Origin: an uncultured Candidatus Saccharibacteria bacterium
GTDB lineage: Bacteria > Patescibacteriota > Dojkabacteria > SC72
NCBI GenBank assembly: GCA_964403155.1
Contig: CAYOEG010000002.1
Coordinates: 74,296-138,295 of the forward strand
DNA: 64,000 bases
Direction of reading: 5' to 3'
Made by a program: the position numbers and the translations under genes. The notes beneath the pieces are model-generated. The model was not told where the DNA came from, did no database searches, and was given only the letters and a program-made list of their open reading frames with translations. Below are positions 24,303 through 57,115 of this stretch, piece by piece. The first letter of the stretch is position 1. Every line of letters starts with the position of its first letter.

Positions 24303-25766
24303 ATGAACAAAGCAGAATTCGACCAATATATAGAGAAGATCCCCAAGCCACAATATACAACTGAAAGTACACCCTCTTACACATTGAACCCTGATGCTCT
24401 TTGGCGATCTACAAAAGAGAATTTGAAGTTAACAATAGGGACAGAAATTTTTAACAATGCTTTTGGAGGAACATATATAGAGAATATTGGAAATGGAGTA
24501 GTACAAATGTCATGTGATTCTGCCTACAAGAGAGAGAAGATATTAAGAGACTATAGCTTTGCATTAAAGGAAGCCCTTAAGAAAGCGTGTGGGCAAAATT
24601 TTGAGATAGAGATAAATATAAGAGAAAATACAATGGTCAAAGATAAATACAAATATGAATATCATGATCCCAGATCTAACCAACCAGTAGATCTCTTTTC
24701 GTCTGCAGAGAATGAGAAAAATCAGAAAGAAGAGACTTTGAGAAAAGCCCAGCTTAATCCTAGATATCTTTTCTCCAATTTCATAGTAGGTACAAACAAT
24801 CGGCTAGCAGAGGCTGTGGCCCAAGCTGTAGTTGATAGCCTTGGAGAAGCATATAATCCTGTGTTCTTTCATGGCAATACAGGAGTAGGAAAAACCCATC
24901 TCATGCAAGCAATAGGGAACGAAGTCATCAACAGATATCCAAACAAGAAGGTTGTATATATCTCCATTGAGCAGTTCCTTAATGAAATGGTGGAATCCAT
25001 AAGAACAAAAAAGAACGAGGAGTTTAGGAATAAATACAGAGCTGTGGACCTACTGATAATAGATGATGTTCAATTCGTTGAAACATTCCCTCGAACACAA
25101 GAAGAGCTCTTTCACACATTTAACACTCTGTATCAAGCAAACAAACAGATTGTTTTGGCGTCTGATAGATCACCAAAAGAGATAAAGAATATTACAGATA
25201 GACTAAGATCTAGATTTGAAGGTGGGATGGTCGCGGATATCCAGGCACCTGATTATGAAACAAGATTGGCAATATTACAGCAGCATCTAATAGAGAAGAA
25301 TTTGAATATTGACGTTCCCCACGAATATCTAGATCTCATTGCTAAAAATGTAGAAAACAACATCCGAGAGCTAGAGGGAGCCTTAACCAAGGTCTTGTCT
25401 CTTTTCAAGTTAGGTATGAACCCTACAGAAGAGGATGTCGCGAAACTTCTGCAGATTGATCTAGATAGTAAACGAAAGAAAATTTCTCCTGTTAAAGTAA
25501 TGAAGGGTGTTTCTGAAGTCTTTGATGTAAAACTTGCGGATATTAAGGGAAGTCGCAGAACGGCATATGTTGCTCAGTGCAGACAAATTGTCATGTATAT
25601 TCTTAGAAATGAGCTTGGCATGCCATTGGAGAGAGTTGCAAAAGAGGTAAATAGAAAAGATCATACTACTGTACTTCATGCTTGCGAAAAAATTAAAAAT
25701 TTGAGAGAAAAAGACTCTAGATTCAACGAAAAAATGCTCGCCTGCTTCAAATTGATAAGAGAGTAG
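24303..25766 (+). CDS. dnaA: chromosomal replication initiator DnaA
   Basis: AAA+ Walker A (GNTGVGKTHL), Walker B (LLIIDDVQF), and a C-terminal DnaA-box-binding HTH (RQIVMYILRNELGMPLERVAKEV...HTTVLHA). Confidence 0.9.
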   Translation: MNKAEFDQYIEKIPKPQYTTESTPSYTLNPDALWRSTKENLKLTIGTEIFNNAFGGTYIENIGNGVVQMSCDSAYKREKILRDYSFALKEALKKACGQNFEIEINIRENTMVKDKYKYEYHDPRSNQPVDLFSSAENEKNQKEETLRKAQLNPRYLFSNFIVGTNNRLAEAVAQAVVDSLGEAYNPVFFHGNTGVGKTHLMQAIGNEVINRYPNKKVVYISIEQFLNEMVESIRTKKNEEFRNKYRAVDLLIIDDVQFVETFPRTQEELFHTFNTLYQANKQIVLASDRSPKEIKNITDRLRSRFEGGMVADIQAPDYETRLAILQQHLIEKNLNIDVPHEYLDLIAKNVENNIRELEGALTKVLSLFKLGMNPTEEDVAKLLQIDLDSKRKKISPVKVMKGVSEVFDVKLADIKGSRRTAYVAQCRQIVMYILRNELGMPLERVAKEVNRKDHTTVLHACEKIKNLREKDSRFNEKMLACFKLIRE

Positions 25767-26219
25767 ATCTGTGGATAACTTTGTGGAAACTTTACGTATA
25801 TCTCCGGATAACTAACATGATTACCCACTCCTTGAAAATGTTGGAATATCGTTGAGGCTTTATTGGTAAAAGATTTCTTAAAAACATTATACCCACACAT
25901 ATCTTTACTTACTCTTAAGTTACCCGAAAAATTAAGCACATCAAAAAAGAAAAGTATGTAGAGGATATCTACGAAGTTGCTTAAATAATTTGCACTAAAG
26001 ATATCCACAGTTATGAACATAAAAAGATTTGATTATAGAAAAGGGAATATCTATCGCGTGGTGGATGTTATCAACATATCCATACTCACTACTACATCTA
26101 TTACTTTTTATATATAAAAAGAAATTTAGAACAATAGGACATAAATTTTTATCAAACACAAAAGGTGATACAATATACATAACAACTGCCCAACTATATT
26201 ATTTTAACTCTTAATAAAG
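25767..26219. promoter_or_regulatory. probable oriC: DnaA-box cluster plus an AT-rich unwinding region
   Basis: A perfect TGTGGATAA box is at 25770-25778. Near-boxes are at 25781-25789, 25804-25812, 26001-26009 (ATATCCACA), 26060-26084 (GTGGATGTTATCAACATATCCATA). The AT-rich stretch 26090-26219 directly precedes dnaN. Confidence 0.6.
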
Positions 26220-27341
26220 ATGCAGTTCTCATGTAATCAAGATACATTCGCAAAATACTTAAATATAATAAGTAGAGTTGTTAACAATAAACCAGGATTG
26301 CCAATACTCAATAATGTCTTGTTTGAAGCATTGAAAGGAAAAGTAATATTGAAAGCAACAGATTTAGAATTAAGTATAAGCACGTGGATAGGTGCAGATG
26401 TAAAAGTTGATGGAAGGATTACGGTGCCAGCAAAACAATTATCTGAATTCATAACCTCCATTCCAGAGGAGAAGGTTGATGTAGAATTGGATAAACAGAG
26501 TTTTAATATCTCTACTGAGAACAACTCTGCGAGTTTTAACACTATGCCTGCGGATGACTTTCCAGCTATACCAGAGGTAGGAGAGGGACAGAAACCAGTT
26601 ATGAAGATAAATAAAGATGATCTAGTAATGGCTATTAACAGAGTGGCTTTTGCTGCTGCAAGAGATGACATCAAACCCGTTTTAACAGGAGTAAAAGTAG
26701 AGATAGATGAATCAAATGTATCTTTTGTATGTACTGATGGTTTGAGACTTTCAAGACAGGTGATCAAGGCAGAAAAAGGTGCTGAGAAGAAGGATATATT
26801 AGTTCCTGTAAGAGCTTTTGAGGAGTTGGCTTACATTGTATCTGCACTAGATAACGAAGACGAAATTATAGAAGTCTATGTGTTAAGTGATAGAAATCAG
26901 GTACTATTTCGATTCGGTGAAGTTGATTTAATATCAAGATTGATAGACGGAGAGTTTCCAGAGTACAAGCAGATCATACCAACAGGATACAAAACAAGAA
27001 GTGAGGTTTCTAAAAGCGATTTCTTGAATTCTTTAAAGGTTATAAATATCATTGCGAGATCAGTATTAGGGAATAAAATGATTTTGGATATATACAAGGA
27101 GGGCAAAATCTCATTGTCAGCGACTCAATCGGATCTTGGGAAAAATCAGAGCAATATGACATGCAAGGTAGAAGGGGAAGATATCAAGATAGCTTTTAGT
27201 GCAAAGCTTCTTTCTGATGTCTTAAACCATGTTGATTCTGAAGAGATTGTTTTTGAATGCTCAGAAGCAGTAAGGCCAGGGGTGTTTAAGATAAAGAAAG
27301 ACGAGAATTTTGTGCACCTAGTGATGCCGATGATGCTTTAG
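26220..27341 (+). CDS. dnaN: DNA polymerase III beta sliding clamp
   Basis: Three-domain clamp of 373 aa with a typical N-terminus (MQFSCNQDTFAKYLNIISRVVNNKPGLPILNNVLFEA). Confidence 0.9.
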   Translation: MQFSCNQDTFAKYLNIISRVVNNKPGLPILNNVLFEALKGKVILKATDLELSISTWIGADVKVDGRITVPAKQLSEFITSIPEEKVDVELDKQSFNISTENNSASFNTMPADDFPAIPEVGEGQKPVMKINKDDLVMAINRVAFAAARDDIKPVLTGVKVEIDESNVSFVCTDGLRLSRQVIKAEKGAEKKDILVPVRAFEELAYIVSALDNEDEIIEVYVLSDRNQVLFRFGEVDLISRLIDGEFPEYKQIIPTGYKTRSEVSKSDFLNSLKVINIIARSVLGNKMILDIYKEGKISLSATQSDLGKNQSNMTCKVEGEDIKIAFSAKLLSDVLNHVDSEEIVFECSEAVRPGVFKIKKDENFVHLVMPMML

Positions 27342-30910: not shown

Positions 30911-31636
30911 ATGTTTGAACCGAAATTAAAAAAATATCTGAAGAAGTTTGATTACTCATATGCCTTGGGAACGTATCCTACGATTGATTTACTCCGATAC
31001 AAACGCGAGCATTTGCTCAAAGTTTTGATTAAATCAAAAGTAGATGAGAGCGAGGGGGTGGAGGAGGTGCTTGCTCTCTGTAAAGAGAACGGTATCAAAG
31101 CAGAGGTGCAGGATAGAGCAATAGAGAAAATCTCAGTAAAAGAGAATACGTATGCGGTTGGAGTTTTTAAGAAATATGATTGTACATTGGATATGGATGC
31201 AAACCATCTTGTGCTTGTTGAACCAAGGAATATGGGTAATCTAGGTACGATTATTCGTACTATGTTAGCTTTTGATTTTAAAAATCTTGCAATTATTAAG
31301 CCAGCTGCGGATATTTTTGATCCTACGGTTGTACGTTCTACAATGGGCGCGGTATTTCAGATTAATTTCGAATATTTTGAGAATATCCAAGAATACATAG
31401 AGAAATATGGGAAGAGAAATATATACACCTTTATGTTGGATGGTGCAGAGGATATTAGGAATGTGAATTTCCAAGAACCATTTAGTATGGTGCAGGGGAA
31501 TGAGAGCAAGGGCTTGCTATCAGAATATTCTAAGATTGGAAAGAGTATATATATTCCTAATTCTAGGAATGTTGATTCACTTAATCTATCCATTGCTACT
31601 GGGATAGGGTTGTGGGAGGCTAGGAGGGGTAAATAA
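30911..31636 (+). CDS. SpoU/TrmH-family RNA 2'-O-methyltransferase
   Basis: SPOUT motifs: LVLVEPRNMGNLGTIIRTMLAFDF and IPNSRNVDSLNLSIATGIGLWE. Confidence 0.8.
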   Translation: MFEPKLKKYLKKFDYSYALGTYPTIDLLRYKREHLLKVLIKSKVDESEGVEEVLALCKENGIKAEVQDRAIEKISVKENTYAVGVFKKYDCTLDMDANHLVLVEPRNMGNLGTIIRTMLAFDFKNLAIIKPAADIFDPTVVRSTMGAVFQINFEYFENIQEYIEKYGKRNIYTFMLDGAEDIRNVNFQEPFSMVQGNESKGLLSEYSKIGKSIYIPNSRNVDSLNLSIATGIGLWEARRGK

Positions 31637-31693
31637 TCATCAAAAATGGTATAATGTATTTGGGATAGCAATATCCTAGATCTTTTTCAATTT

Positions 31694-32105
31694 GGGGACG
31701 TAAGGCTTTCGACAGGAGTCTGCGTTTAGTTGTCACAAACCGAGGGTTGTCTCGTTAATCAACGCACAATGATAAGTGTAAAAAACAAAATCGTCGCCTT
31801 TGCAGAGAATATTAAAGCAAGTTTGGCTATGCCAGCTTTCAACTTTAACTTTGCTTAAGGTTTAGTCAATTAAGTTTGACTAATGTCTTCTTTTTCTATT
31901 CCTAGTTAGGAATTTAAGACAGTCGTTACTAGGATATATACTTACTATTTTGTCGGTAGAGTAGTGAGCACGAAAGTAATTACTGAGTGGATATATCTTT
32001 TTGCTAATCCTTTTAGATATGTCTAACTATTTAGGATTAGATATGTTTGTACATGATGCTAGACAATGCTTATGGACGTGGGTTCAATTCCCACCGTCTC
32101 CACCA
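31694..32105 (+). ncRNA. ssrA: tmRNA (ssrA)
   Basis: The 5' end is GGGGACGUAAGGCUUUCGAC, the 3' end is a tRNA-like GGACGUGGGUUCAAUUCCCACCGUCUCCACCA, and the acceptor pairing is GGGGACG/CGUCUCC. The tag reading frame ends ...AMPAFNFNFA-stop (approximately 31796-31858). Confidence 0.85.
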
Positions 32106-32117
32106 TTATTGAAAATA

Positions 32118-32435
32118 TTATTGTTTTTGATTAGGAAATTTTTCTTCGATATCATCAACGAATTCCACAATGCCCTCTCTTAAGCGTCTTGGTCCTGTCA
32201 TTGTCGAGAAACCCTTCAATATTTCCGTAGGTATATGTTGGACAAGAAAAAGGTTCGGGGTCATTTTTATAGTTGTGACTTCTACGTAATGAGGTTCTAA
32301 ATCAATATCTTCTTTGTAAGAGTCTGCTAGAGTTGCCTTTTGAAATTCTTGCTGTAGCAAGTCCTGTTCTGCCAATGCTGCTTTTAACTGTTCCGCATTT
32401 TGAAGTATTTCTCCTTCTTGACTATCTTCGCCCAT
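32118..32435 (-). CDS. hypothetical acidic protein (islet 1)
   Basis: 105-aa ORF between the ssrA 3' end and att-like repeat A. Confidence 0.3.
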   Translation of the reverse strand: MGEDSQEGEILQNAEQLKAALAEQDLLQQEFQKATLADSYKEDIDLEPHYVEVTTIKMTPNLFLVQHIPTEILKGFSTMTGPRRLREGIVEFVDDIEEKFPNQKQ

Positions 32436-32503
32436 TGCAATATATAGATGTCATATTTTAATAAATAATTTTACTAAATATAGAGAAAGATTGCGACAAG
32501 GGC

Positions 32504-32549
32504 TTTAAGTTCCAAGCTATCCAACACATCCCACCATATTGAAAATATT
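32504..32549. repeat. att-like direct repeat A, related to the ssrA 3' flank and to repeat B
   Basis: TTTAAGTTCCAAGCTATCCAACACATCCCACCATATTGAAAATATT. Its 3' half, CCACCATATTGAAAATATT, matches CCACCATTATTGAAAATATT at 32100-32119 (the tmRNA end plus flank). Confidence 0.5.
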
Positions 32550-32582
32550 CCCTGTGAACTATCTTTTTGATATATTTATATC

Positions 32583-33170
32583 ATGAACGAATTCGAGAAA
32601 TTATTACAGGAAGCAAGGGAATTGGCATATTCTGAAGCAAAGAAATATTCTACACCAATACTAAAACATATAGATTTTGCAACACACCAAGGAATTACTC
32701 TGGCGGAGAAATTGGTTGCAAACAAGAGAATTGTTGAGGTTGGAACGTTACTTATGGATATAAAGATAGGAGAGGCTGTTAACCAAGGAAAATTATCCGA
32801 GCATGTTCAGATGTCGCATGATTTTACAAAAGAGTTATTATCTAAATATTCTGAAATTTCGGACGAAGATAAGACGAACATAGAGGCTTGTGTCCTTGAG
32901 CATCATGGTAAAGAGAAGTTTTACTCTATAGAGTCAGAGATATGTTGTAATGCAGATTGCTACAGATTTTGTTCTGTAGAAGGAGTCTCATATGTACTAA
33001 GATACTTCCGAGATATAGAGTTTAAAGATTTGGTTGCTTTAATAAATCATAAAATTGAAGAAAAATGGAATGCACTATCGTTAGATATTTGTAAAAGAGG
33101 ACTAGAACCGCAGCATAAGATTCTTCTCACATTTATGAAATATTTAAAAGAAGAACAAGCGAGATTTTAA
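32583..33170 (+). CDS. HD-domain protein (putative metal-dependent phosphohydrolase), islet 2
   Basis: H...H...HD...HH...D pattern (ATHQGI..., MSHDFTK, LEHHGKEK). Confidence 0.4.
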   Translation: MNEFEKLLQEARELAYSEAKKYSTPILKHIDFATHQGITLAEKLVANKRIVEVGTLLMDIKIGEAVNQGKLSEHVQMSHDFTKELLSKYSEISDEDKTNIEACVLEHHGKEKFYSIESEICCNADCYRFCSVEGVSYVLRYFRDIEFKDLVALINHKIEEKWNALSLDICKRGLEPQHKILLTFMKYLKEEQARF

Positions 33171-33204
33171 GTTCCAAGCTCTCCAACACATCTCACTACA
33201 TTGG
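33166..33204. repeat. att-like direct repeat B (copy of repeat A)
   Basis: TTTTAAGTTCCAAGCTCTCCAACACATCTCACTACATTG. About 33 of 37 positions are identical to repeat A. It overlaps the HD gene stop. Confidence 0.45.
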
Positions 33205-33273
33205 GCTCATTGTTTCAAGAGGGGAATCCATCATATAGTGTATAATCGAAAAAATAAATTGAAATTATAAGAA

Positions 33274-33954
33274 ATGGCAAACTCTGATTTTCTAAGGGCA
33301 AATCTAAACCAACATGCAGTAAAGAACTCTAAATCTAAAAAAATGGATGAAGAGATTGATGTTGCAGTTCAAAAATTGATCCCTTTCCTCTCTGAAAAAT
33401 ACCCCGAACTTGATTTTGAACATCAAAAAAAGATGCTTTTAAAGGACATTATTTCAATGTTATCCTTACAATTTCCGGGATATTCAAATTTTTTTAGATG
33501 TGAAAAAGAGACGAGCTTCATAAAACCAGATGGAGGTTTCCTTTTTGCGAAGAATAAGAGAGGAGAAAGACGTTTAGTTCTAGTTGCAGAAGTAAAAAGG
33601 CAGGGAACCAATGATAAGAGATTTGAAGAAGGGTTAAGTAGCCAAGCCATGGGGAATGCAATAGAAAGGTTAGGGAAAAATCTCATAGGTATAAGGACGA
33701 TTTTTAAAAATGAAGGAGTTTTGCCTTTTATCTGCTTTGGTTCGGGTCATGATTTTAGAGAAGGATCTTCCATCTTGGACAGAGTTATAACTATGAACGA
33801 ATTCTTCCCATTAAACCAACTCTTCGTAGAGAAGGACTTTATGCCATTTGAACCTGTTTCCATGATGTTTAGATATGAACCTTGGACTGTTGACGAAATG
33901 TTTGAAAGCATGAAAAAGGTTGCAATAAAGGCAATAGAGTATAAGTTTGTTTAA
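33274..33954 (+). CDS. putative type II restriction endonuclease (PD-(D/E)xK)
   Basis: IKPDGGFLF, about 20 residues, then LVLVAEVKRQG forms a PD...ExK signature. It is convergent with, and overlaps by 4 bp, a Dam-like methyltransferase gene. Confidence 0.4.
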   Translation: MANSDFLRANLNQHAVKNSKSKKMDEEIDVAVQKLIPFLSEKYPELDFEHQKKMLLKDIISMLSLQFPGYSNFFRCEKETSFIKPDGGFLFAKNKRGERRLVLVAEVKRQGTNDKRFEEGLSSQAMGNAIERLGKNLIGIRTIFKNEGVLPFICFGSGHDFREGSSILDRVITMNEFFPLNQLFVEKDFMPFEPVSMMFRYEPWTVDEMFESMKKVAIKAIEYKFV

Positions 33955-35099
33955 TTCTTTTTCAATAACCACAAGAGTTCTTTAACCTTGATTGTTCTTT
34001 CTCTTAGGTTTCGAGAACCTCTATACGTGTTGTAATCTTGTTCGTAAAGAATGTAATCCCCATGTTTTTCTAGCATCTTCTTGAAAGTATCTATCGGTAT
34101 AATACCCTCATTGTTGTAAGAGATAAGGATGTATTTTGCTTTTGTGTTTTCTAAAAGGTTGTTCATAAAAACTTCTGCCTCTTGTCTTTTGTTGTATTTT
34201 GACTTGTTCCACTCTTTTGAGATTCCACTTACTCCATCCTGAATATCTGTAGGTTTACCACTATTTATTATATTCAACATGAAATAATTTGAACCATAAG
34301 GATGTTGGTTGTATGGAGGATCGTAATATGCTAAATCAACTTCTGGAAGTTCCAAAATCAGGTTATTAATATCTTCTTGATAGACAGTATAATCACATTC
34401 AACTTCTGAGAAAATCGGCACTTCTAATTCTATCTCACCTTTTATTCGTGTTAATGCATTCTCCCCTTTGCCTCCAAAGTGTCCAATCCCGTCCTTTTTG
34501 TGAAATCCTTTGAAAACACCGGAAGTGTTTGTATGTATAGAAGATTCGACTAGAAGATTTGCCAGACAATATTTTTGTAAATCCTTGTCTAATGTATCTA
34601 TTAAAAATCTAACATTATCAATAATTAAAGCATTTTTATGTGTATAAAAAACGCGCTCTCCTTCCTGAATATTATTGTCATCCTTTGGTGCATAATTTCT
34701 AGTGATAAAATATTCAGATTTAGTTTTTTCAAGTTTCTTTGCATTTAAATATTCTATTGAGTCAGAGAGCTTCTTTATATTAACAGAACTTTTGTTATCC
34801 AAATAAGCAGAGTTAATAGTAAAGGCATAACTTTCTAAGTCATTTACAAGGAGATCCTTTGAGTGATATTTTAGTAACCTTGATACAGAGCCACTTCCAG
34901 CAAAACCATCCAAGGATGTTATTTTATCTTTTCCTAATTCCTTTTTTATTTCTACAATCGCTTGATTAAGAAAAGGAAGTAGCTTTCTCTTATTACCAAT
35001 ATATGTAATTAAGTGTGAAGAAAAGTAGTCCTGGTTAAGAAAGTCACGATCTGTATCATCTTCGAAAAGAAATAGTTTCTGTATATGTTTTCTCTTCAC
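33951..35099 (-). CDS. N6-adenine-specific DNA methyltransferase, D12 (Dam-like) class
   Basis: N-terminal YIGNKRKLLPFL (the Dam 'WAGGK'-type motif), SAM motif LDGFAGSGSV, and catalytic DPPY (AYYDPPYNQHPYGSNYF). Confidence 0.75.
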   Translation of the reverse strand: MKRKHIQKLFLFEDDTDRDFLNQDYFSSHLITYIGNKRKLLPFLNQAIVEIKKELGKDKITSLDGFAGSGSVSRLLKYHSKDLLVNDLESYAFTINSAYLDNKSSVNIKKLSDSIEYLNAKKLEKTKSEYFITRNYAPKDDNNIQEGERVFYTHKNALIIDNVRFLIDTLDKDLQKYCLANLLVESSIHTNTSGVFKGFHKKDGIGHFGGKGENALTRIKGEIELEVPIFSEVECDYTVYQEDINNLILELPEVDLAYYDPPYNQHPYGSNYFMLNIINSGKPTDIQDGVSGISKEWNKSKYNKRQEAEVFMNNLLENTKAKYILISYNNEGIIPIDTFKKMLEKHGDYILYEQDYNTYRGSRNLRERTIKVKELLWLLKKN

Positions 35100-35310
35100 T
35101 TTTTATTCGCACTAAGAAGTTAGATTTGTAGTATAGGTTACTGAGAACAGGTAAATTATATCATGTGATATACAGAGTAGATATTCAAGATTATTGTTGC
35201 TTAGGATATAATTCAAGCGGTGAAAATGGTATTGTAAAGAAGAAAGGTTCTTAGTGAGTTCGAACTTTTGAATACGACACTCACCAATTTAATATATAAA
35301 CCATAAGGGT

Positions 35311-36066
35311 ATGAACAAGATCGCAATTCCTAAGTTCGTTTTAATTTTACTAGGTTTTCTTCTTCTGACTGCGTGTGTTGCAATAGGATTGCTCTTTTTC
35401 AACGATGAGCAATGTGCTGTAGAGGAGAATAAGACAGGACAGAATACTGAAGAGGTTGAAGATGTAAATGATAAGTGTGTAGATATAGATTTGAAAGATA
35501 CCTCTGGTGCATGGAGATACTTAGAGAAGATTGAAAAGATAGCGAATGATACTTCGTATGGTGTGGTTATTACTGTTACAGAAGTTGATGAAAATGGAAG
35601 CAAGACAGGAGAATGCAAATTGTATATTACTGATTATGTAGAAGAGGGTTTGGGTGTTTCGAATACGCAATTGGGTGCATTATCCGAGATTGTATATATA
35701 GGGGAGGGTAGTGTTGCTTACAATTATGGCAATGCTATATACACACAAAAGATTGAGGAGGATGCAAAGGCAGTCGTAATTGCAAATCAAGAATTAGCTG
35801 CGGAAACATCACTGGAAGAAGAGGGTGAGACTTTGATTTTTGATGGTCCATTTTTAGTAGACAAGGGAGAAAAGACGGGTGTTTCAGAGACAGGGCAATT
35901 TGTTTTCCTTGTAGATTTTATATTTGGTTGTGAGACAGATACTCTCCCGAGATCTTGTGAAGAAATGACTTCTTTGAGCCAAGAGCTTGAGGAACAGGGT
36001 GTCACAGGCTGGTGGATGTATAAGGGCCTTCCTGGTGGTGGGATAGTTCATCTGATCGAGGATTAA
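35311..36066 (+). CDS. putative lipoprotein, acidic and secreted
   Basis: Signal peptide with a lipobox (LLTAC). Confidence 0.4.
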   Translation: MNKIAIPKFVLILLGFLLLTACVAIGLLFFNDEQCAVEENKTGQNTEEVEDVNDKCVDIDLKDTSGAWRYLEKIEKIANDTSYGVVITVTEVDENGSKTGECKLYITDYVEEGLGVSNTQLGALSEIVYIGEGSVAYNYGNAIYTQKIEEDAKAVVIANQELAAETSLEEEGETLIFDGPFLVDKGEKTGVSETGQFVFLVDFIFGCETDTLPRSCEEMTSLSQELEEQGVTGWWMYKGLPGGGIVHLIED

Positions 36067-36086
36067 TTTAAATTACTGGTATCTAG

Positions 36087-36734
36087 ATGGAGATATTGTT
36101 GATTAATGGTAGTGCAAGAAAAGGAGGATTCTGTAATACTATTGCCCAAGGACTTAAAGCAAACTTGGATTCAATAAGCAGTAGTAAGCATGAAGTGCAC
36201 ACAAAGATCTTCACAATAGCAGAGAAGGACATTAAGTTTTGTGCCGGTTGTGTGAGTTGTTGTGCAGAGGAGAATAGATATTGCTATATAAAAGATGACA
36301 CATACGAAGCATACAAATTAATGGAAAACGCAGATTCCATCGTCTATATCTCTCCAATTTATGAAAGTTTTATTTCTGGTATATTAAAGAATTTTTTTGA
36401 TAGGACCAATCACTATACATCTTTTTTCAAGCTAGCAGGGAAACCAATGAACTTAATTTTGTGTGGAGTGCAACCTCTCAGCTTCGGGAAAAAGGAATTC
36501 TCAAACAGACATGTTATTAAAAATGTTAACCAGTACTTTAGAAATTATTCAATAATCACACACACAATCTATCACTTCCTAGGATTTTTCCATCACGAGG
36601 ATCACCATTCAGTAACAAATAAGTCTAATTTAGAGAAGTTCGAAAAACAGTTAAGAAGTATTGCTCAAAAGTTGGCAAAGCAAAAGATAGAAAAAAAGAA
36701 AAGTAAGGAGAGAGAAACGTCATATAGTGTTTAA
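36087..36734 (+). CDS. NAD(P)H-dependent FMN reductase-like flavoprotein (flavodoxin fold, Cys-rich)
   Basis: MEILLINGSARKGGFCNT flavodoxin-like N-terminus and a compact Cys cluster (CAGCVSCC), as in iron-sulfur flavoproteins. Confidence 0.45.
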   Translation: MEILLINGSARKGGFCNTIAQGLKANLDSISSSKHEVHTKIFTIAEKDIKFCAGCVSCCAEENRYCYIKDDTYEAYKLMENADSIVYISPIYESFISGILKNFFDRTNHYTSFFKLAGKPMNLILCGVQPLSFGKKEFSNRHVIKNVNQYFRNYSIITHTIYHFLGFFHHEDHHSVTNKSNLEKFEKQLRSIAQKLAKQKIEKKKSKERETSYSV

Positions 36735-36766
36735 ATTGCGAACCTTTTAATCAATTCAAAATCTCT

Positions 36767-37600
36767 TTACTCCACAGCACTCATACTCCCCAATATTCCA
36801 TCTATCTGTACTAGTTCATCTCCAGATATATCCTCCGGGAATTTGTAAAAGTATGCCTCATATGCAGGACCATCAGAATTGGCATCCTCAAAGGTAACGC
36901 CATCTAATGCAACTACAATATTAAAACATGGAGCCTCAAAAAATTCGTTACCCTCTTCGTCGTCCTGATAGAATCTATTGGCTACTCTTCTTGTAGTATG
37001 TCCTAACCACTCAAATTCTGTATATGGCATACTGCTAAAATCATTTATATTTAGAGTATCACCCATCTCATCTGCCATATCCTCCATCTCTTGTCTATAA
37101 TCTGGATTATCATCTTCAAAAGCATAGTATTCATTGCAACCAGCAAAACCAATACCATTAACACCCTTTAACCAGAACATCTCTTCATCATTCGCATTAA
37201 ATATTTTTAAACCTGTTAAACCAGAGTAAGTAACACCCTCTACTAAAGAATCTGATCCTTCTCCATCAAAATATTCTTCAATACTCCAACCCTCAGGAAG
37301 AGTGGCGGATATTACCTCGCCAGTAAATGTTTCTGTTATCTCTTCGTTTTCAGTTTCTGCAATTGTATTGTCATCTGTATCCTTTATTTGTGTGTTGGTA
37401 TCTGTATCCGATTTGCCTAAGAAAGGTATTTCTACTAGGCCTTTTTGATTCGCAATATATACCAAAAGACATACAATGATTAAGCCCAATATTGTGCAAA
37501 GGGCTATTAGTCCTCCATTACTTTTGGGTTTTGATACGGGAGGTGTAGGCATTGGTGGAGTAGTGGTTTGTGTTTCCACAACATTTGGTTGATTATCCAT
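36767..37600 (-). CDS. hypothetical acidic surface protein (Pro/Thr-rich N-terminus plus a TM anchor)
   Basis: TTPPMPTPP, a TM helix, and an Asp/Glu-rich ectodomain. Confidence 0.3.
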   Translation of the reverse strand: MDNQPNVVETQTTTPPMPTPPVSKPKSNGGLIALCTILGLIIVCLLVYIANQKGLVEIPFLGKSDTDTNTQIKDTDDNTIAETENEEITETFTGEVISATLPEGWSIEEYFDGEGSDSLVEGVTYSGLTGLKIFNANDEEMFWLKGVNGIGFAGCNEYYAFEDDNPDYRQEMEDMADEMGDTLNINDFSSMPYTEFEWLGHTTRRVANRFYQDDEEGNEFFEAPCFNIVVALDGVTFEDANSDGPAYEAYFYKFPEDISGDELVQIDGILGSMSAVE

Positions 37601-51410: not shown

Positions 51411-53975
51411 GTGATATTCTTTAAGCATAAGATTACCTTACTGCCATTAATGAATTCAGATGAATTCACATATTCACAAGTAATAGGTCCAATTAAAGAT
51501 CCTACCAAAGAAATTGAAACTGGTTCTAATGTTGTGTATCCAAATAATTCATACGAGGAATATTATGGAAACAACAATATAGAGATCCCGTGGGGTTGGA
51601 TTATTTTCGCACTTGTATTAATAGGTGGCCTTGTAGTAGCTTTTTTCCTTGTTAAGAAAAAATTAATTAGGAAAGACAGAAATGAAAAAGCCAATGATGG
51701 AGTATTAATGGAGGTACGGGTTCCAAGAGATAACGAAGTGGAAATAGGAGTCGCAGAACAGATGTTCGCAAATCTCTACGGTATTGGTGGAAAAGGAGAT
51801 GGCTTAGCAGAACACTTTACAGTAGGTAACGCAGTAAGTTTTGAAGTTGTTGGATTACCTGGTGAAATTAGGTTCTTTGTGCATTGCCCAAGGAAATTCG
51901 CTGACTTAGTTGAGAAACAAATCTTAGGATCATACCAAGATGCTGATGTCTCGATAGTGAATGAGTACAATATATTTGCTCCCAATACTAAATCAGCATA
52001 CACAAGGTTAGTCTTAGACGAGGAACCATATTGTCCATTAAGAGTAGCAGAGAATTTTACAGGAGATCCATTTGCAAATGTACTTAGCACACTTAGCAAG
52101 ATGTCTGAAAATGAAGGTGCTGTTGTACAGATAATTGTTACTCCTACAGATAGTACTTGGCAGAAAAATGGGGCGAAGTTTGTACAGAAGGTAGAAAACA
52201 ACAACTCAGATCCCGAAAAGAAAAAGATAGGGATCTCACAGGAGAAGTTGCAAGGAATAGGGAAGAAGGTTGCAAAGCCAGGGTTGGCCACCGAGATTCG
52301 TATTATGACAAGTGCTCCTGACGAGGCGATTGCAAAGATGCATTTAGATAATATTGTTGGTGCATTCGACCAATACAATAACCCAGGGGTGAACAAATTA
52401 AAGAAGGCAAAGGTAGAGAAGAAAGACGAGAAGAGATTCCTTTATGATGTCATATATAGGAGGACGCCAGAAGCAAAGGAATCTATTCTTAATGTCGAAG
52501 AGCTTGCGGCCTTATATCATTTCCCTAATAAAAATATTACAACACCCAATATTCATTGGTTGCTATCAAGAGAGTTAGTGGCAGATAATTCAATTAGTTC
52601 TGACATAAAGTCTAAGGATACGATATGGATCGGGAACAATTATTTTAGAGGAAAGAAGAAGATTATATGTTTTGAACGGGATGATAGAAGAAGGCATTCG
52701 TATATTCTTGGTCAGACGGGTACGGGTAAGTCTTGGCTTATGAAGAGGATGATATTGCAAGATATATACAATGGCGATGGGGTTTGTTTCATAGATCCAC
52801 ATGGAGAAACAGCAGAAGATATTTTAGAGTTGATCCCACCAGAGAGGGCAGAGGATGTTATCTACTTTAATGCAGGAGATTTTGAACGTCCTTTTGGTTT
52901 GAATATTATGGAATTTTACAATGAGCAGCATCAGCACCAAATTGTTAATAGCTTCATTGCTTTGTTGATTAGGTTGTTTGACCCTCACAATCAAGGATAT
53001 GTAGGTCCGGCAATGCAACAAGCGGTAAGAAACTCTATGCTTACAGCTATGGCAAAAGAAGGGTCGACTCTAATTGAGGTTGTTAGAATATTGCAGGATG
53101 AGGAATGGGTTATGAATTATTGGTTACCAATGGTAAAGGATGAACTGGTAAGAAGGTACTGGACTGATCAGGTGGCGAAGACAGACAAAAAGACTAAGTC
53201 TGAATCTTTGACATATTTCATTAGTAAGTTTGATAAATTCACAACAAATCTGGCAATTAGAAATATTATTGGTCAGTCTAAATCATCTTTTGATTTCAGA
53301 GATGTGATGGACAACCAGAAAATCCTGATAATCAACCTTTCGAAGGGTGCGATAGGGGATGAGAATATGTCCTTCATCGGTCTTCTTGTTGTACAGAAAA
53401 TGTTGGCTGCGGCACTAAGTAGAGAGAATATTCCTCAAGAACAAAGAAAAGACTTTTTCTTCTATGCTGATGAGTTCCAGAATTTTGCAACAGAGGAATT
53501 CTCTTCTATTTTGTCCGAGGCAAGAAAGTACAAATTAAATCTCACAATTGCACATCAATATATTGGTCAACTACCGGAAGAAATTAAGAATGCAGTGTTT
53601 GGTAACGTTGGTTCTTTATTCATAACAAGGTGTAGTGCAGAGGATGCAAAGTTTTTGGAGACTCAGTTTGAGCCATATGTTAAGGCGGGAGATATGGTTA
53701 ACCAAGGTTCTGGACATTGGTATGTTAAATTACTGAACAATGGTGTATATCCTGCGCCTTTCTCGCTTAATTCTTTCTATGGACCGAAATTCCCTGATTC
53801 TGGTTTTGATCTTCCTGTTAGAAAGGATGTGGCAGATATTATTAAGAAATACTCAAGAGCTAAGTATGGTAGGGATGTGGCAGTAATTAATGAGGATATT
53901 AAGATAAGGTCACAGTTGGACAGAAAACCTGAACCTAATCCTATGAATTCTCCATTCCCGCAAATGGGATTCTAA
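51411..53975 (+). CDS. membrane-anchored FtsK/HerA-superfamily P-loop ATPase of type IV secretion type (VirD4/TraD-like coupling protein, or VirB4-like)
   Basis: N-terminal TM helix. Walker A is YILGQTGTGKSWLM, Walker B is DFFFYADEFQNFA, and there is a downstream TIAHQYIGQL motif. Confidence 0.55.
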   Translation: MIFFKHKITLLPLMNSDEFTYSQVIGPIKDPTKEIETGSNVVYPNNSYEEYYGNNNIEIPWGWIIFALVLIGGLVVAFFLVKKKLIRKDRNEKANDGVLMEVRVPRDNEVEIGVAEQMFANLYGIGGKGDGLAEHFTVGNAVSFEVVGLPGEIRFFVHCPRKFADLVEKQILGSYQDADVSIVNEYNIFAPNTKSAYTRLVLDEEPYCPLRVAENFTGDPFANVLSTLSKMSENEGAVVQIIVTPTDSTWQKNGAKFVQKVENNNSDPEKKKIGISQEKLQGIGKKVAKPGLATEIRIMTSAPDEAIAKMHLDNIVGAFDQYNNPGVNKLKKAKVEKKDEKRFLYDVIYRRTPEAKESILNVEELAALYHFPNKNITTPNIHWLLSRELVADNSISSDIKSKDTIWIGNNYFRGKKKIICFERDDRRRHSYILGQTGTGKSWLMKRMILQDIYNGDGVCFIDPHGETAEDILELIPPERAEDVIYFNAGDFERPFGLNIMEFYNEQHQHQIVNSFIALLIRLFDPHNQGYVGPAMQQAVRNSMLTAMAKEGSTLIEVVRILQDEEWVMNYWLPMVKDELVRRYWTDQVAKTDKKTKSESLTYFISKFDKFTTNLAIRNIIGQSKSSFDFRDVMDNQKILIINLSKGAIGDENMSFIGLLVVQKMLAAALSRENIPQEQRKDFFFYADEFQNFATEEFSSILSEARKYKLNLTIAHQYIGQLPEEIKNAVFGNVGSLFITRCSAEDAKFLETQFEPYVKAGDMVNQGSGHWYVKLLNNGVYPAPFSLNSFYGPKFPDSGFDLPVRKDVADIIKKYSRAKYGRDVAVINEDIKIRSQLDRKPEPNPMNSPFPQMGF

Positions 53976-54027
53976 TAGATGTATCTTCTAAAAACCTTCA
54001 TCTTTTGGTAGAATAGGCTACTTTAAT

Positions 54028-54100
54028 GGGAGTATAGCTCAGTCGGCAGAGCGCGGTTCTTATAAAGCCGTGGTCGATGGTTCGATTCCATCTACTCCCA
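54028..54100 (+). tRNA. tRNA-Ile (anticodon UAU), no encoded CCA
   Basis: Hand-folded. The acceptor stem is GGGAGTA/TACTCCC, the D-arm is GCTC...GAGC, the anticodon stem is CGGTT/AGCCG, the loop is CTTATAA, and the T-loop is TTCGATT. Confidence 0.7.
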
Positions 54101-54142
54101 TATTTCATCAATATTTAATAACTGCAGAGTACAATCTTCGTT

Positions 54143-54729: not shown

Positions 54730-55617
54730 TTACAGTTCTTTAAGATTCTTTTGATCCTCTTTTTGCATCTTAACAAGGTTAAGATACTTTTCTGTAGTAG
54801 AAAGTCTCTTGTGACCAACTAACTTGGAAACAACAACAAGACTTACACCATTAGCTAAGTGATGTGCAATAAAGGTATTTCTAAGATCATTAACCTTTGC
54901 ATTCTTAATACCACCTCTCTCAAACGCCTTATCTATCGCAGTTCTAATATTTCTTACCAAGAGAGGTCTACCATTCTTTGTTACAAACAATGTATCATCT
55001 TCTGTCTCCGGTCTTACTTCTAAATATTCATCAATAGCCTTCTTTGCCGATTTGTTTAGAGGAACCTTCCTGAATGGGTGGCTACCAGCAGCTTTGATAT
55101 ACAAATAATCGATCTTTCCATCTTTAGATTTTCTAATATCTTCCAAAGAAAGAGCTGCCAATTCTCCAATTCTAATACCAGTTTGTAATAGCACTTCTAC
55201 GATAGAGTAGAGACGGATATCAATTCTACTGACATCTCTCAATGCCCTGTATTCCATTTCTGTTAATACTCTAGGAGGTTTAGTCTCAAACTTAGGATGT
55301 GCTAATTTCTCTGATGGATTATCAGAAATCATAGAGTTATCCATTAGATATCTGTAGAAGGTTCTGGTACTGTTTATCTTTCTGGAAATACTCTTTGGGG
55401 TGTAGTTATTATCCTGTAAATACTGTTTGTACTTCTCCAAATCTTCAATAGTGGTGTCTTGGATAGTAGCTCTAGCTTCTTTCGAAAAGAAATTTAGCAA
55501 TTGCTCGATATCTTTAGCATAAGCTATAACAGTGGCTTCAGACCTACCCTTAGATCTTAAATCACCTATAAACTTATTTCTTTTCTCTTCAAAATTTGGA
55601 TTATTTATTGCTCCCAC
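54730..55617 (-). CDS. tyrosine recombinase (XerC/XerD or phage-integrase family)
   Basis: The N-terminal SAM-like core-binding domain and the catalytic R...H..R...Y residues (TGIRIGEL, HHLANG, LVGHKRLSTTEKY). Confidence 0.8.
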   Translation of the reverse strand: MGAINNPNFEEKRNKFIGDLRSKGRSEATVIAYAKDIEQLLNFFSKEARATIQDTTIEDLEKYKQYLQDNNYTPKSISRKINSTRTFYRYLMDNSMISDNPSEKLAHPKFETKPPRVLTEMEYRALRDVSRIDIRLYSIVEVLLQTGIRIGELAALSLEDIRKSKDGKIDYLYIKAAGSHPFRKVPLNKSAKKAIDEYLEVRPETEDDTLFVTKNGRPLLVRNIRTAIDKAFERGGIKNAKVNDLRNTFIAHHLANGVSLVVVSKLVGHKRLSTTEKYLNLVKMQKEDQKNLKEL

Positions 55618-56981: not shown

Positions 56982-57007
56982 GAATTTGGTATAATCTTGT
57001 ACTACTT

Positions 57008-57081
57008 GGTGGAATAGCTCAGAAGGTTAGAGCATGGGATTCATAAACCCAAGGTCGGTGGTTCGATTCCACCTTCCACCA
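57008..57081 (+). tRNA. elongator tRNA-Met (or tRNA-Ile2), anticodon CAU
   Basis: G1-C72 (GGTGGAA/TTCCACC), anticodon loop TTCATAA, and T-loop TTCGATT. Confidence 0.7.
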
Positions 57082-57115
57082 TATTTTCACAAAAAGGAAC
57101 TTATAGTATAATCAA

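Follow-up and report, generated by a model that had tools for sequence, protein, structure and literature searches.

What produced the two near-identical repeats that lie directly downstream of ssrA, the gene for transfer-messenger RNA (tmRNA), in an uncultured Candidatus Saccharibacteria bacterium? The stretch of DNA that was analyzed, hereafter the window, consists of 64,000 nt of contig CAYOEG010000002.1 and comes from a genome with a GC content of about 36%. An earlier note on this DNA had taken the repeats, A and B, for fossil integration sites at the ssrA 3' end that enclose two miniature islets, each insertion having regenerated a partial attachment site. The comparisons described below lead to a somewhat different explanation, which we consider probably correct overall: two single-gene cassettes, drawn from a widespread cassette system, were inserted successively at the CCACCA end of ssrA. 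A and B are very probably cassette-end junctions of one site family, members of which bound integrative elements with a large serine recombinase (LSR), and ssrA was used as an alternative, tRNA-like target. The features concerned are:

31694–32105, plus strand: ssrA (tmRNA), predicted by ARAGORN and matched by Rfam RF00023 (126.9 bits, full model, positions 1–374).
32100–32119, plus strand: proximal junction, CCACCA followed by TTATTGAAAATATT, the opening bases of cassette 1; arranged alike in L127, a contig from a close relative.
32118–32435, minus strand: cassette 1 gene, 105 aa, convergent with ssrA.
32504–32536, plus strand: site A, TTTAAGTTCCAAGCTATCCAACACATCCCACCA, an intact type I cassette-end site made up of the element-side arm and the CCACCA core.
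32537–32549, plus strand: flank repeat, TATTGAAAATATT, the second copy of the flank found after the tmRNA end.
32583–33170, plus strand: cassette 2 gene, 195 aa, with an HD-superfamily fold in its AlphaFold model.
33166–33198, plus strand: site B, TTTAAGTTCCAAGCTCTCCAACACATCTCACTA, type I, with the mutated core CTCACTA replacing CCCACCA.

The attachment point (B arm) is the tRNA-like 3' end of the tmRNA (...GGGTTCAATTCCCACCGTCTCCACCA; ssrA 3' end, GGGTTCAATTCCCACCGTCTCCACCATT), and the gene terminates in ...CCGTCTCCACCA. The gene is intact and directly abutted by cassette 1, the tmRNA stopping at 32105 and the cassette starting at 32106. The 20 nt spanning the tmRNA end (CCACCATTATTGAAAATATT, 32100–32119) do recur at 32531–32549 (CCACCATATTGAAAATATT), with one indel between the copies, and repeats A (32504–32541) and B (33166–33203) share a 5' part of 38 nt at 89% identity, as had been claimed. 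The genes that they bracket are real, with open reading frames (ORFs) of 105 and 195 aa. A 30-nt pattern covering A and B is matched only twice in the 64 kb, with no match expected from 100 shuffles. Site A scores 30.5 bits (nhmmer, E = 1.4e-8) and matches the family core exactly, and its 24-nt core is found without mismatch in eight other genomes. Site B scores 18.1 bits in an alignment that ends before the core, where there are two C-to-T changes, and the stop codon (TAA) of the cassette 2 gene falls within it. The word fossil is apt for site B and for the drifted site of L127, but not for site A. The proposed regeneration of a partial ssrA attachment site did not hold: the tmRNA and A/B have CCACCA alone in common, and the conserved 5' part is the element-borne arm of a family that usually targets tRNA-Val and is found behind tRNA-Val in other genomes.

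A scan of one genome per species for the 24-nt core common to A and B gave eight other Saccharibacteria and Dojkabacteria genomes, and in all eight the conservation stops abruptly at ...CCCACCA. Weaker copies revealed several co-oriented sites per locus, one in each intergenic gap, and several sequence types with the general form TTAAGTTCCAWGC-N13-CCACCA(TT). This generalized pattern matched 106 further metagenome loci and three viral loci, for a family total of more than 110 loci from Saccharibacteria and Dojkabacteria (cited here by L-numbers), while the type I pattern had no match in viral contigs. Strand, tRNA and array counts were made with an nhmmer profile built from site copies. Its matches fall on one strand in 292 cases and on the other in three; 66 loci carry at least two sites, and a single locus up to eight. 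An upstream tRNA gene is held by 47 loci, and in 42 of them it is a same-strand tRNA-Val (gac or tac), the remaining five having tRNA-Lys, tRNA-Ile(tat), tRNA-Ala or an unassigned tRNA. A tmRNA gene occurs at none of these 47 loci, the ssrA location being limited to the window and its close relatives. On the 3' side of CCACCA only the TT is conserved, with TATAAT-like sequences peaking 13–17 nt further on, and in general there is neither a conserved right-hand arm nor a target duplication. When type I and type II sites were folded as DNA, neither strand gave a hairpin (z-scores between +0.3 and −0.8), and the sites are therefore not attC-like. One site type ends with the last 13 nt of the host's own tRNA-Val (L088, L134, L136 and other arrays); the L088 copy includes a host-specific variant (GTACCGCCCACCA), and a 27-nt repeat there spans the tRNA end and its flank. 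Two other ideas about the nature of the sites were rejected: they are not true tRNA 3' halves, as the arm exceeds such a half by 4 nt and pairing is impossible for the bases at T-arm positions, and the tRNA-like CCA end does not mark a retroelement, as there is no reverse transcriptase.

The sites divide these loci into arrays of single genes. Across 159 distinct inter-site intervals the median length is 671 nt (10–90% range, 399–1469 nt) and the largest ORF covers a median of 91% of the interval, with 93 such ORFs oriented like the site and 53 oppositely. The cargo is diverse and includes methyltransferases, KsgA/Erm-type rRNA methylases, NUDIX, UDG, TatD, and aminoglycoside or choline kinase-like enzymes; no recombinase is present among the families listed for 139 cassette proteins. 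Breakpoints between related arrays are modular. Right-hand homology ends lie within 40 nt of a site in 141 of 221 cases, and exactly at CCACCA+2 in 57 of the 221, while left-hand ends are spread within the arm, from −35 to 0. L009 and L073 share the same cassettes at 99% identity but in reversed order, and some cassettes that adjoin the tRNA in certain arrays are internal in others. Taken together, the homology ends and the content of the intervals indicate that the mobile unit consists of a variable start, one gene, and the arm with CCACCA. KsgA/Erm-type rRNA adenine dimethylases were seen in nine cassettes, and aminoglycoside or choline kinase-like phosphotransferases in four or five (L004–L120 in both cases), and these are possible resistance cargo.

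One cassette is non-coding. About 118 nt long and conserved at 85–94% identity, it occurs in L014 (12633–12750 of the oriented locus), L018, L047, L060, L098, L113, L134, L009 and 10 or more further loci but not in the window, and usually forms the first unit after tRNA-Val, with its own TATAAT upstream. The RNA is predicted to adopt a cloverleaf like that of tRNA, closed by a helix of 8 bp and containing a D-like hairpin, then a long central arm and a T-like hairpin; compensatory changes are found at three base pairs. It has no Rfam match even at E ≤ 10.

The link to an LSR comes from loci in which a site is separated from the tRNA by a much longer insert. In L014 (identical to L092) and L100 there are about 12.5 kb between tRNA-Val and a site, encoding a recombinase of 601 aa with Resolvase, Recombinase and zinc-ribbon (Zn_ribbon) domains, along with FtsK-like and small-terminase-subunit-like proteins and a type IIG restriction-modification enzyme. 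The LSR ORF runs antisense and ends inside the tRNA gene. The two hosts differ in the acceptor stems of their tRNA-Val, yet the elements have the same distal arm, and the homology between the loci begins in the tRNA and ends at CCACCA+TT of the site, which would place the crossover in or just after CCACCA. Four further LSR homologues (56–76% identity; loci among L133–L138) overlap the 3' end of tRNA-Val and sit downstream of genes for sortase, trigger factor and ClpP. Wherever the contig is long enough (L134, L136/L137 and L138) a site follows 6.8–9.2 kb after the LSR, with a cassette array beyond it in L134 and L136/L137, and the first site of L136 is of type I, the same type as in the window. 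An LSR remnant abuts tRNA-Ala in L113. The family site is found, then, at the outer end of elements of 6.8–12.5 kb, and the LSR gene at the other end, abutting the tRNA-Val 3' end. Since the gene and the arm occupy opposite ends of the same elements, we infer that the LSR family is probably what makes these junctions. In about 800 kb of these loci no recombinase other than this type was found, and a phmmer search there detected no tyrosine recombinase (the single query was the Xer-like protein of the window, so that very distant relatives could escape). The LSR has no relative in viral contigs apart from its own contig. A tyrosine integrase, as implied when the tmRNA end was called a classic attB, is not the recombinase associated with these sites.

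Several details of the LSR elements bear on how they may work. The inner arm beside the tRNA is also conserved, and in reverse it resembles the outer arm, so that the two would form an imperfect palindrome of about 56 bp centered on CCA|CCA. From GTTC to the end of CCACCA there are 28 nt in the element arm and 24 nt in tRNA-Val. A conserved gene of 132–137 aa upstream of the LSR is a candidate for a directionality factor. The LSR ORFs of L014, L100 and L133–L138 enter the last 15–30 nt of tRNA-Val antisense and encode the C-terminus ...WWAIRDSNL*; because the ORF end lies in tRNA-Val, excision of the element would change this C-terminus. In the same loci a third copy of TTAAGTTCCATG is found just upstream of each LSR start codon.

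Comparison with close relatives of the window genome was one of the checks suggested in the earlier note, and its outcome was favorable. Three contigs from a relative (L127–L129) encode a tmRNA tag peptide identical to that of the window. In L127 and L129 the tmRNA, a 104-aa gene and a site match the window at 84% nucleotide identity, and the homology ends 11 nt past CCACCA, at window position 32547; that of the shorter L128 ends within cassette 1, at 32482. Beyond the site, L127 has an unrelated 208-aa gene, and homology to the window returns at 36782. The L127 site has drifted about as far as the DNA around it. The shared cassette and site, followed by divergence, place cassette 1 before the split of the two lineages, and window positions 32548–36781 are lineage-specific. 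The 105-aa protein of cassette 1 has no Pfam match and no known domain, and only three homologues, of which the one at 68% also adjoins the same tmRNA.

For cassette 2, the earlier assignment as an HD-domain gene is borne out by structure but not by sequence: the AlphaFold model of the 195-aa protein (pLDDT 97) resembles HD-superfamily hydrolases, e.g., YpgQ (TM 0.65–0.75), whereas there is no Pfam HD match, and searching PDB sequences with a family profile found nothing. Its closest homologue (76% identity) is the third cassette of the tRNA-Val array L121, with sites on both sides; the surroundings of remoter homologues contain no detectable site. The L127 and L121 comparisons both support the view that the ssrA 3' end carries insertion junctions bounding two one-gene islets. 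Within the first 117 loci there are no homologues of the cassette proteins of the window or of their neighbors. Upstream of the cassette 2 gene is TGATATATT, which looks like an extended −10 element, and a consensus promoter and terminator scan of 31600–33400 gave nothing above shuffled sequence.

How else could such repeats arise? Classical decay of islands placed by a tyrosine integrase would require that two islands entered at ssrA, that an identity block was duplicated each time, and that both were later deleted down to one gene. The target itself speaks for this, ssrA reportedly being well known as a tyrosine integrase target from work by Williams in 2002 that a preprint on tycheposons cites, as do the 19–20 nt direct repeat that brackets cassette 1, the L088 repeat across a tRNA end and its flank, and the presence of a XerC/D-like gene in the window. 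That gene, however, lies at a distance of 21.5 kb and is without a homologue in about 800 kb of array loci, the part conserved between A and B does not come from ssrA, units that are uniformly of one gene over 159 intervals are unlike the result of random deletion, and the family site terminates LSR elements; we regard this origin as unlikely. A serious rival is homologous recombination between the 33-nt arms, following natural transformation for instance; cassettes would then be swapped or inserted by this route, with no dedicated recombinase, and the LSR would move large elements only. It would account for the near-identity of the arms between cassettes and genomes, the spread of left-hand breakpoints through the arm (−35 to 0), the lack of a conserved right half-site at most junctions, and the occurrence of mosaic site variants. 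The sharp fixation of right-hand breakpoints at CCACCA+2 does not fit it, a single orientation and anchoring at tRNA 3' ends are what a site-specific system predicts, and 33 nt is near the minimum for RecA-dependent exchange, so that we rate it as rather improbable, though deserving close attention.

Two other possibilities have already been contradicted by the data and retain very little credibility. The repeats might be a generic intergenic regulatory element (promoter, terminator or insulator) or resemble repetitive extragenic palindromic (REP) sequences, an alternative raised in the earlier note, and they are indeed intergenic and often followed by TATAAT-like sequences. But in the 64 kb of the window there are just two copies, which lie immediately downstream of ssrA, and the matches elsewhere (292 of 295 on one strand) occur exclusively in tRNA-anchored arrays, invariably on the strand of the tRNA whatever the gene orientation; they form no hairpin, and no terminator-like site was detected. 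Equally hard to sustain is an array of the integron type, in which an IntI-type integrase would recombine the sites as attC: single-ORF cassettes, a conserved site at the cassette 3' end and growth beside an anchor all recall integrons, yet there are no attC-like hairpins, no IntI or other tyrosine recombinase is found near the arrays, and the genes lie on both strands with their own promoters.

The favored explanation, successive cassette insertion at ssrA by an LSR-linked system, has its own difficulties. As a target, ssrA is confined to one lineage, and no LSR homologue was found in the window or on the contigs of its relatives. Only about six distinct LSR elements were seen in the more than 120 loci. 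Past the TT, the DNA on the right-hand side of the junctions is unconserved, so that the majority of junctions are half-sites. For the reconstructed attP, dyad symmetry exceeds that of shuffled sequence only modestly: 15–18 of 30 arm positions are symmetrical in four related elements, while in shuffles the best fraction averages 0.43 and reaches 0.52 at the 95th percentile. Type III sites copy the 3' end of the host's own tRNA-Val, and such copies are hard to reconcile with a crossover inside CCACCA. The 13-nt flank repeat after the tmRNA and after A is rare elsewhere; by itself it is only modestly unlikely (at least 13 of 16 identities occur in about 1% of random flank pairs from other sites), and the likeness is unusual in that neighboring flanks elsewhere are no more similar than random pairs. 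Together with the type III sites, it suggests longer identity segments than an LSR needs, and neither observation agrees with a simple 2-bp crossover. Finally, canonical LSRs recombine only attP with attB, and not attP with an occupied site, and repeated entry at an occupied tRNA end would need relaxed site choice. All of these points weigh against the explanation, and growth of the arrays by relaxed site choice is a doubtful proposition at present.

Family membership of the sites, the layout of the arrays, the modular breakpoints and the joint occurrence of LSR gene and site are observed, whereas LSR action on cassette junctions and the way in which arrays grow are inferred. The mechanism that we propose is as follows. 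Sites A and B are very probably the distal junctions of two one-gene cassettes that were inserted in turn at the ssrA CCACCA, and belong to a system that is widespread in Saccharibacteria and related bacteria of the candidate phyla radiation (CPR). Each unit comprises a variable start that often has a promoter of its own, a single gene in either orientation, and an arm of about 33 nt that is conserved and ends in CCACCA. New units would enter beside the tRNA-like 3' end and displace older ones outward, the usual target being tRNA-Val and, in the window, the tRNA-like domain of the tmRNA. The conserved arm also forms the outer end (P arm of attR) of the integrative elements of 6.8–12.5 kb, and the LSR family probably makes the junctions by a crossover in or just after CCACCA. 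Cassettes without a recombinase could have been moved in trans or left behind by LSR elements. A possible route is that an element excises via a different distal arm, or a more proximal one, and so picks up or leaves cassettes, as in the staphylococcal cassette chromosome (SCC). The window locus is probably inactive now, with A and B as local relics, because there is no LSR and site B is degraded.

More tentatively, Saccharibacteria and related candidate-phyla bacteria may possess an integron-like gene-capture platform that is built on an LSR and not on a tyrosine integrase. Cassettes, including the tRNA-shaped RNA cassette, would be stacked behind tRNA-Val and occasionally behind ssrA or other CCACCA tRNAs, each with one half-site ending in a mimic of a tRNA 3' end, and LSR elements would shuffle or ferry them by using alternative distal sites. 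The full-text literature, as far as it was covered, contained no earlier description of such arrays; coverage was incomplete, and a prior description is possible. With this limit, the combination of site-specific accretion at tRNA or tmRNA genes, integron-like single-gene cassettes and a serine recombinase seems to be new here. Candidate-phyla genomes are around 1 Mb, very few mobile elements have been described in them, and how they gain accessory genes is poorly understood. If the proposal is true, the entry points of strain-specific genes and their reshuffling would both be accounted for by a dedicated, widely shared cassette platform at a single tRNA. The cargo observed includes genes for restriction-modification, nucleotide repair and nucleotide hydrolysis, together with rRNA-methylase and phosphotransferase genes as possible resistance determinants. 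Such a platform would further mean that serine recombinases, too, can be the basis of an integron-like architecture, and would provide natural recombinase and attachment-site pairs for the engineering of Saccharibacteria.

The remaining features of the window that touch on this question are:

33199–36781, no strand assigned: segment absent from the relative L127; no distal site found.
33274–33954, plus strand: EcoRI-like endonuclease, within this segment.
33951–35099, minus strand: D12 methyltransferase, which pairs with the EcoRI-like endonuclease as restriction-modification.
35311–36066, plus strand: 251-aa protein, within the same segment.
36087–36734, plus strand: FMN reductase, within the same segment.
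54730–55617, minus strand: XerC/D-like tyrosine recombinase, 295 aa, scoring under the NCBIfam equivalog cut-offs.

The restriction-modification module said to follow the islets is thus confirmed, and the segment that contains it is a third insertion, or else ancestral DNA that L127 has lost. It had also been stated correctly that no integrase remains at the locus: between 29 and 40 kb none was found among the Pfam-tested ORFs of at least 150 aa, nor among the four ORFs between ssrA and 35.1 kb. The XerC/D-like gene is the sole recombinase gene of the window, and its product has no homologue beside any cassette array; the gene adjoins tRNA-Ile(tat) (54027–54101) and a gene for a VirD4/HerA-like ATPase (51411–53975). 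Upstream of ssrA a SpoU protein is encoded, and dnaA and dnaN (24303–27341) indicate a likely replication origin region about 4.4 kb upstream of ssrA. Two Logan contigs of the same strain (L001 and L002) begin exactly at window positions 32082, in the tmRNA T-loop, and 32504, the first base of site A, which fits graph branching due to a site and a tmRNA end shared with further genomes of the sample. The reverse complement of TAAGTTCC occurs at 57083–57110, 15–22 nt downstream of a tRNA-Met gene (57007–57082) that ends in CCACCA without an encoded CCA; this copy is probably due to chance, the 8-mer occurring four times in the window.

Among known systems, the LSR elements resemble those of phiC31/Bxb1/A118-type integrases in having the recombinase gene beside attP, a reconstructed attP of about 56 bp that may be imperfectly palindromic, and junctions that generally lack long direct repeats. 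The motif of the element arm lies 4 nt further from the center than that of the tRNA arm (28 and 24 nt), which resembles the attP/attB offset of serine integrases that Rutherford and colleagues are said to have described in 2013. Canonical serine integrases differ in making one insertion per attB and in needing a directionality factor for reversal, and we know of no description of half-site junction arrays for them. Integrons have in common with the arrays their single-gene cassettes, the recombination site at the cassette 3' end, diverse cargo, and an order that can be shuffled; in contrast to integrons, the arrays have no IntI tyrosine recombinase and no folded attC, they carry separately promoted genes in either orientation, and they are anchored at the 3' end of a tRNA or tmRNA. 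In the composite SCC islands of staphylococci, LSRs insert at the 3' end of one conserved gene, and SCCmec and pseudo-SCC units pile up in tandem, with short conserved insertion-site repeats between them and with recombinase-less units included (bioRxiv 10.1101/336396), much as in the arrays. The SCC target is rlmH and not a tRNA or tmRNA gene, the units are multi-gene and of 10–60 kb compared to single genes of about 0.7 kb, and the hosts are of another phylum. Tycheposons, which form additive islands in Prochlorococcus, integrate at a few tRNA genes and at the tmRNA gene, a minority of them using LSRs, and like the arrays they occur in streamlined genomes, where newcomers displace older units outward and remnants and integrase-less cargo are found (bioRxiv 10.1101/2020.12.28.424599). 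The separators in tycheposons are partial tRNA copies, whereas those described here are an element-borne arm sharing only CCACCA with the target, and the arrays are further distinguished by their single-gene units and very regular boundaries.

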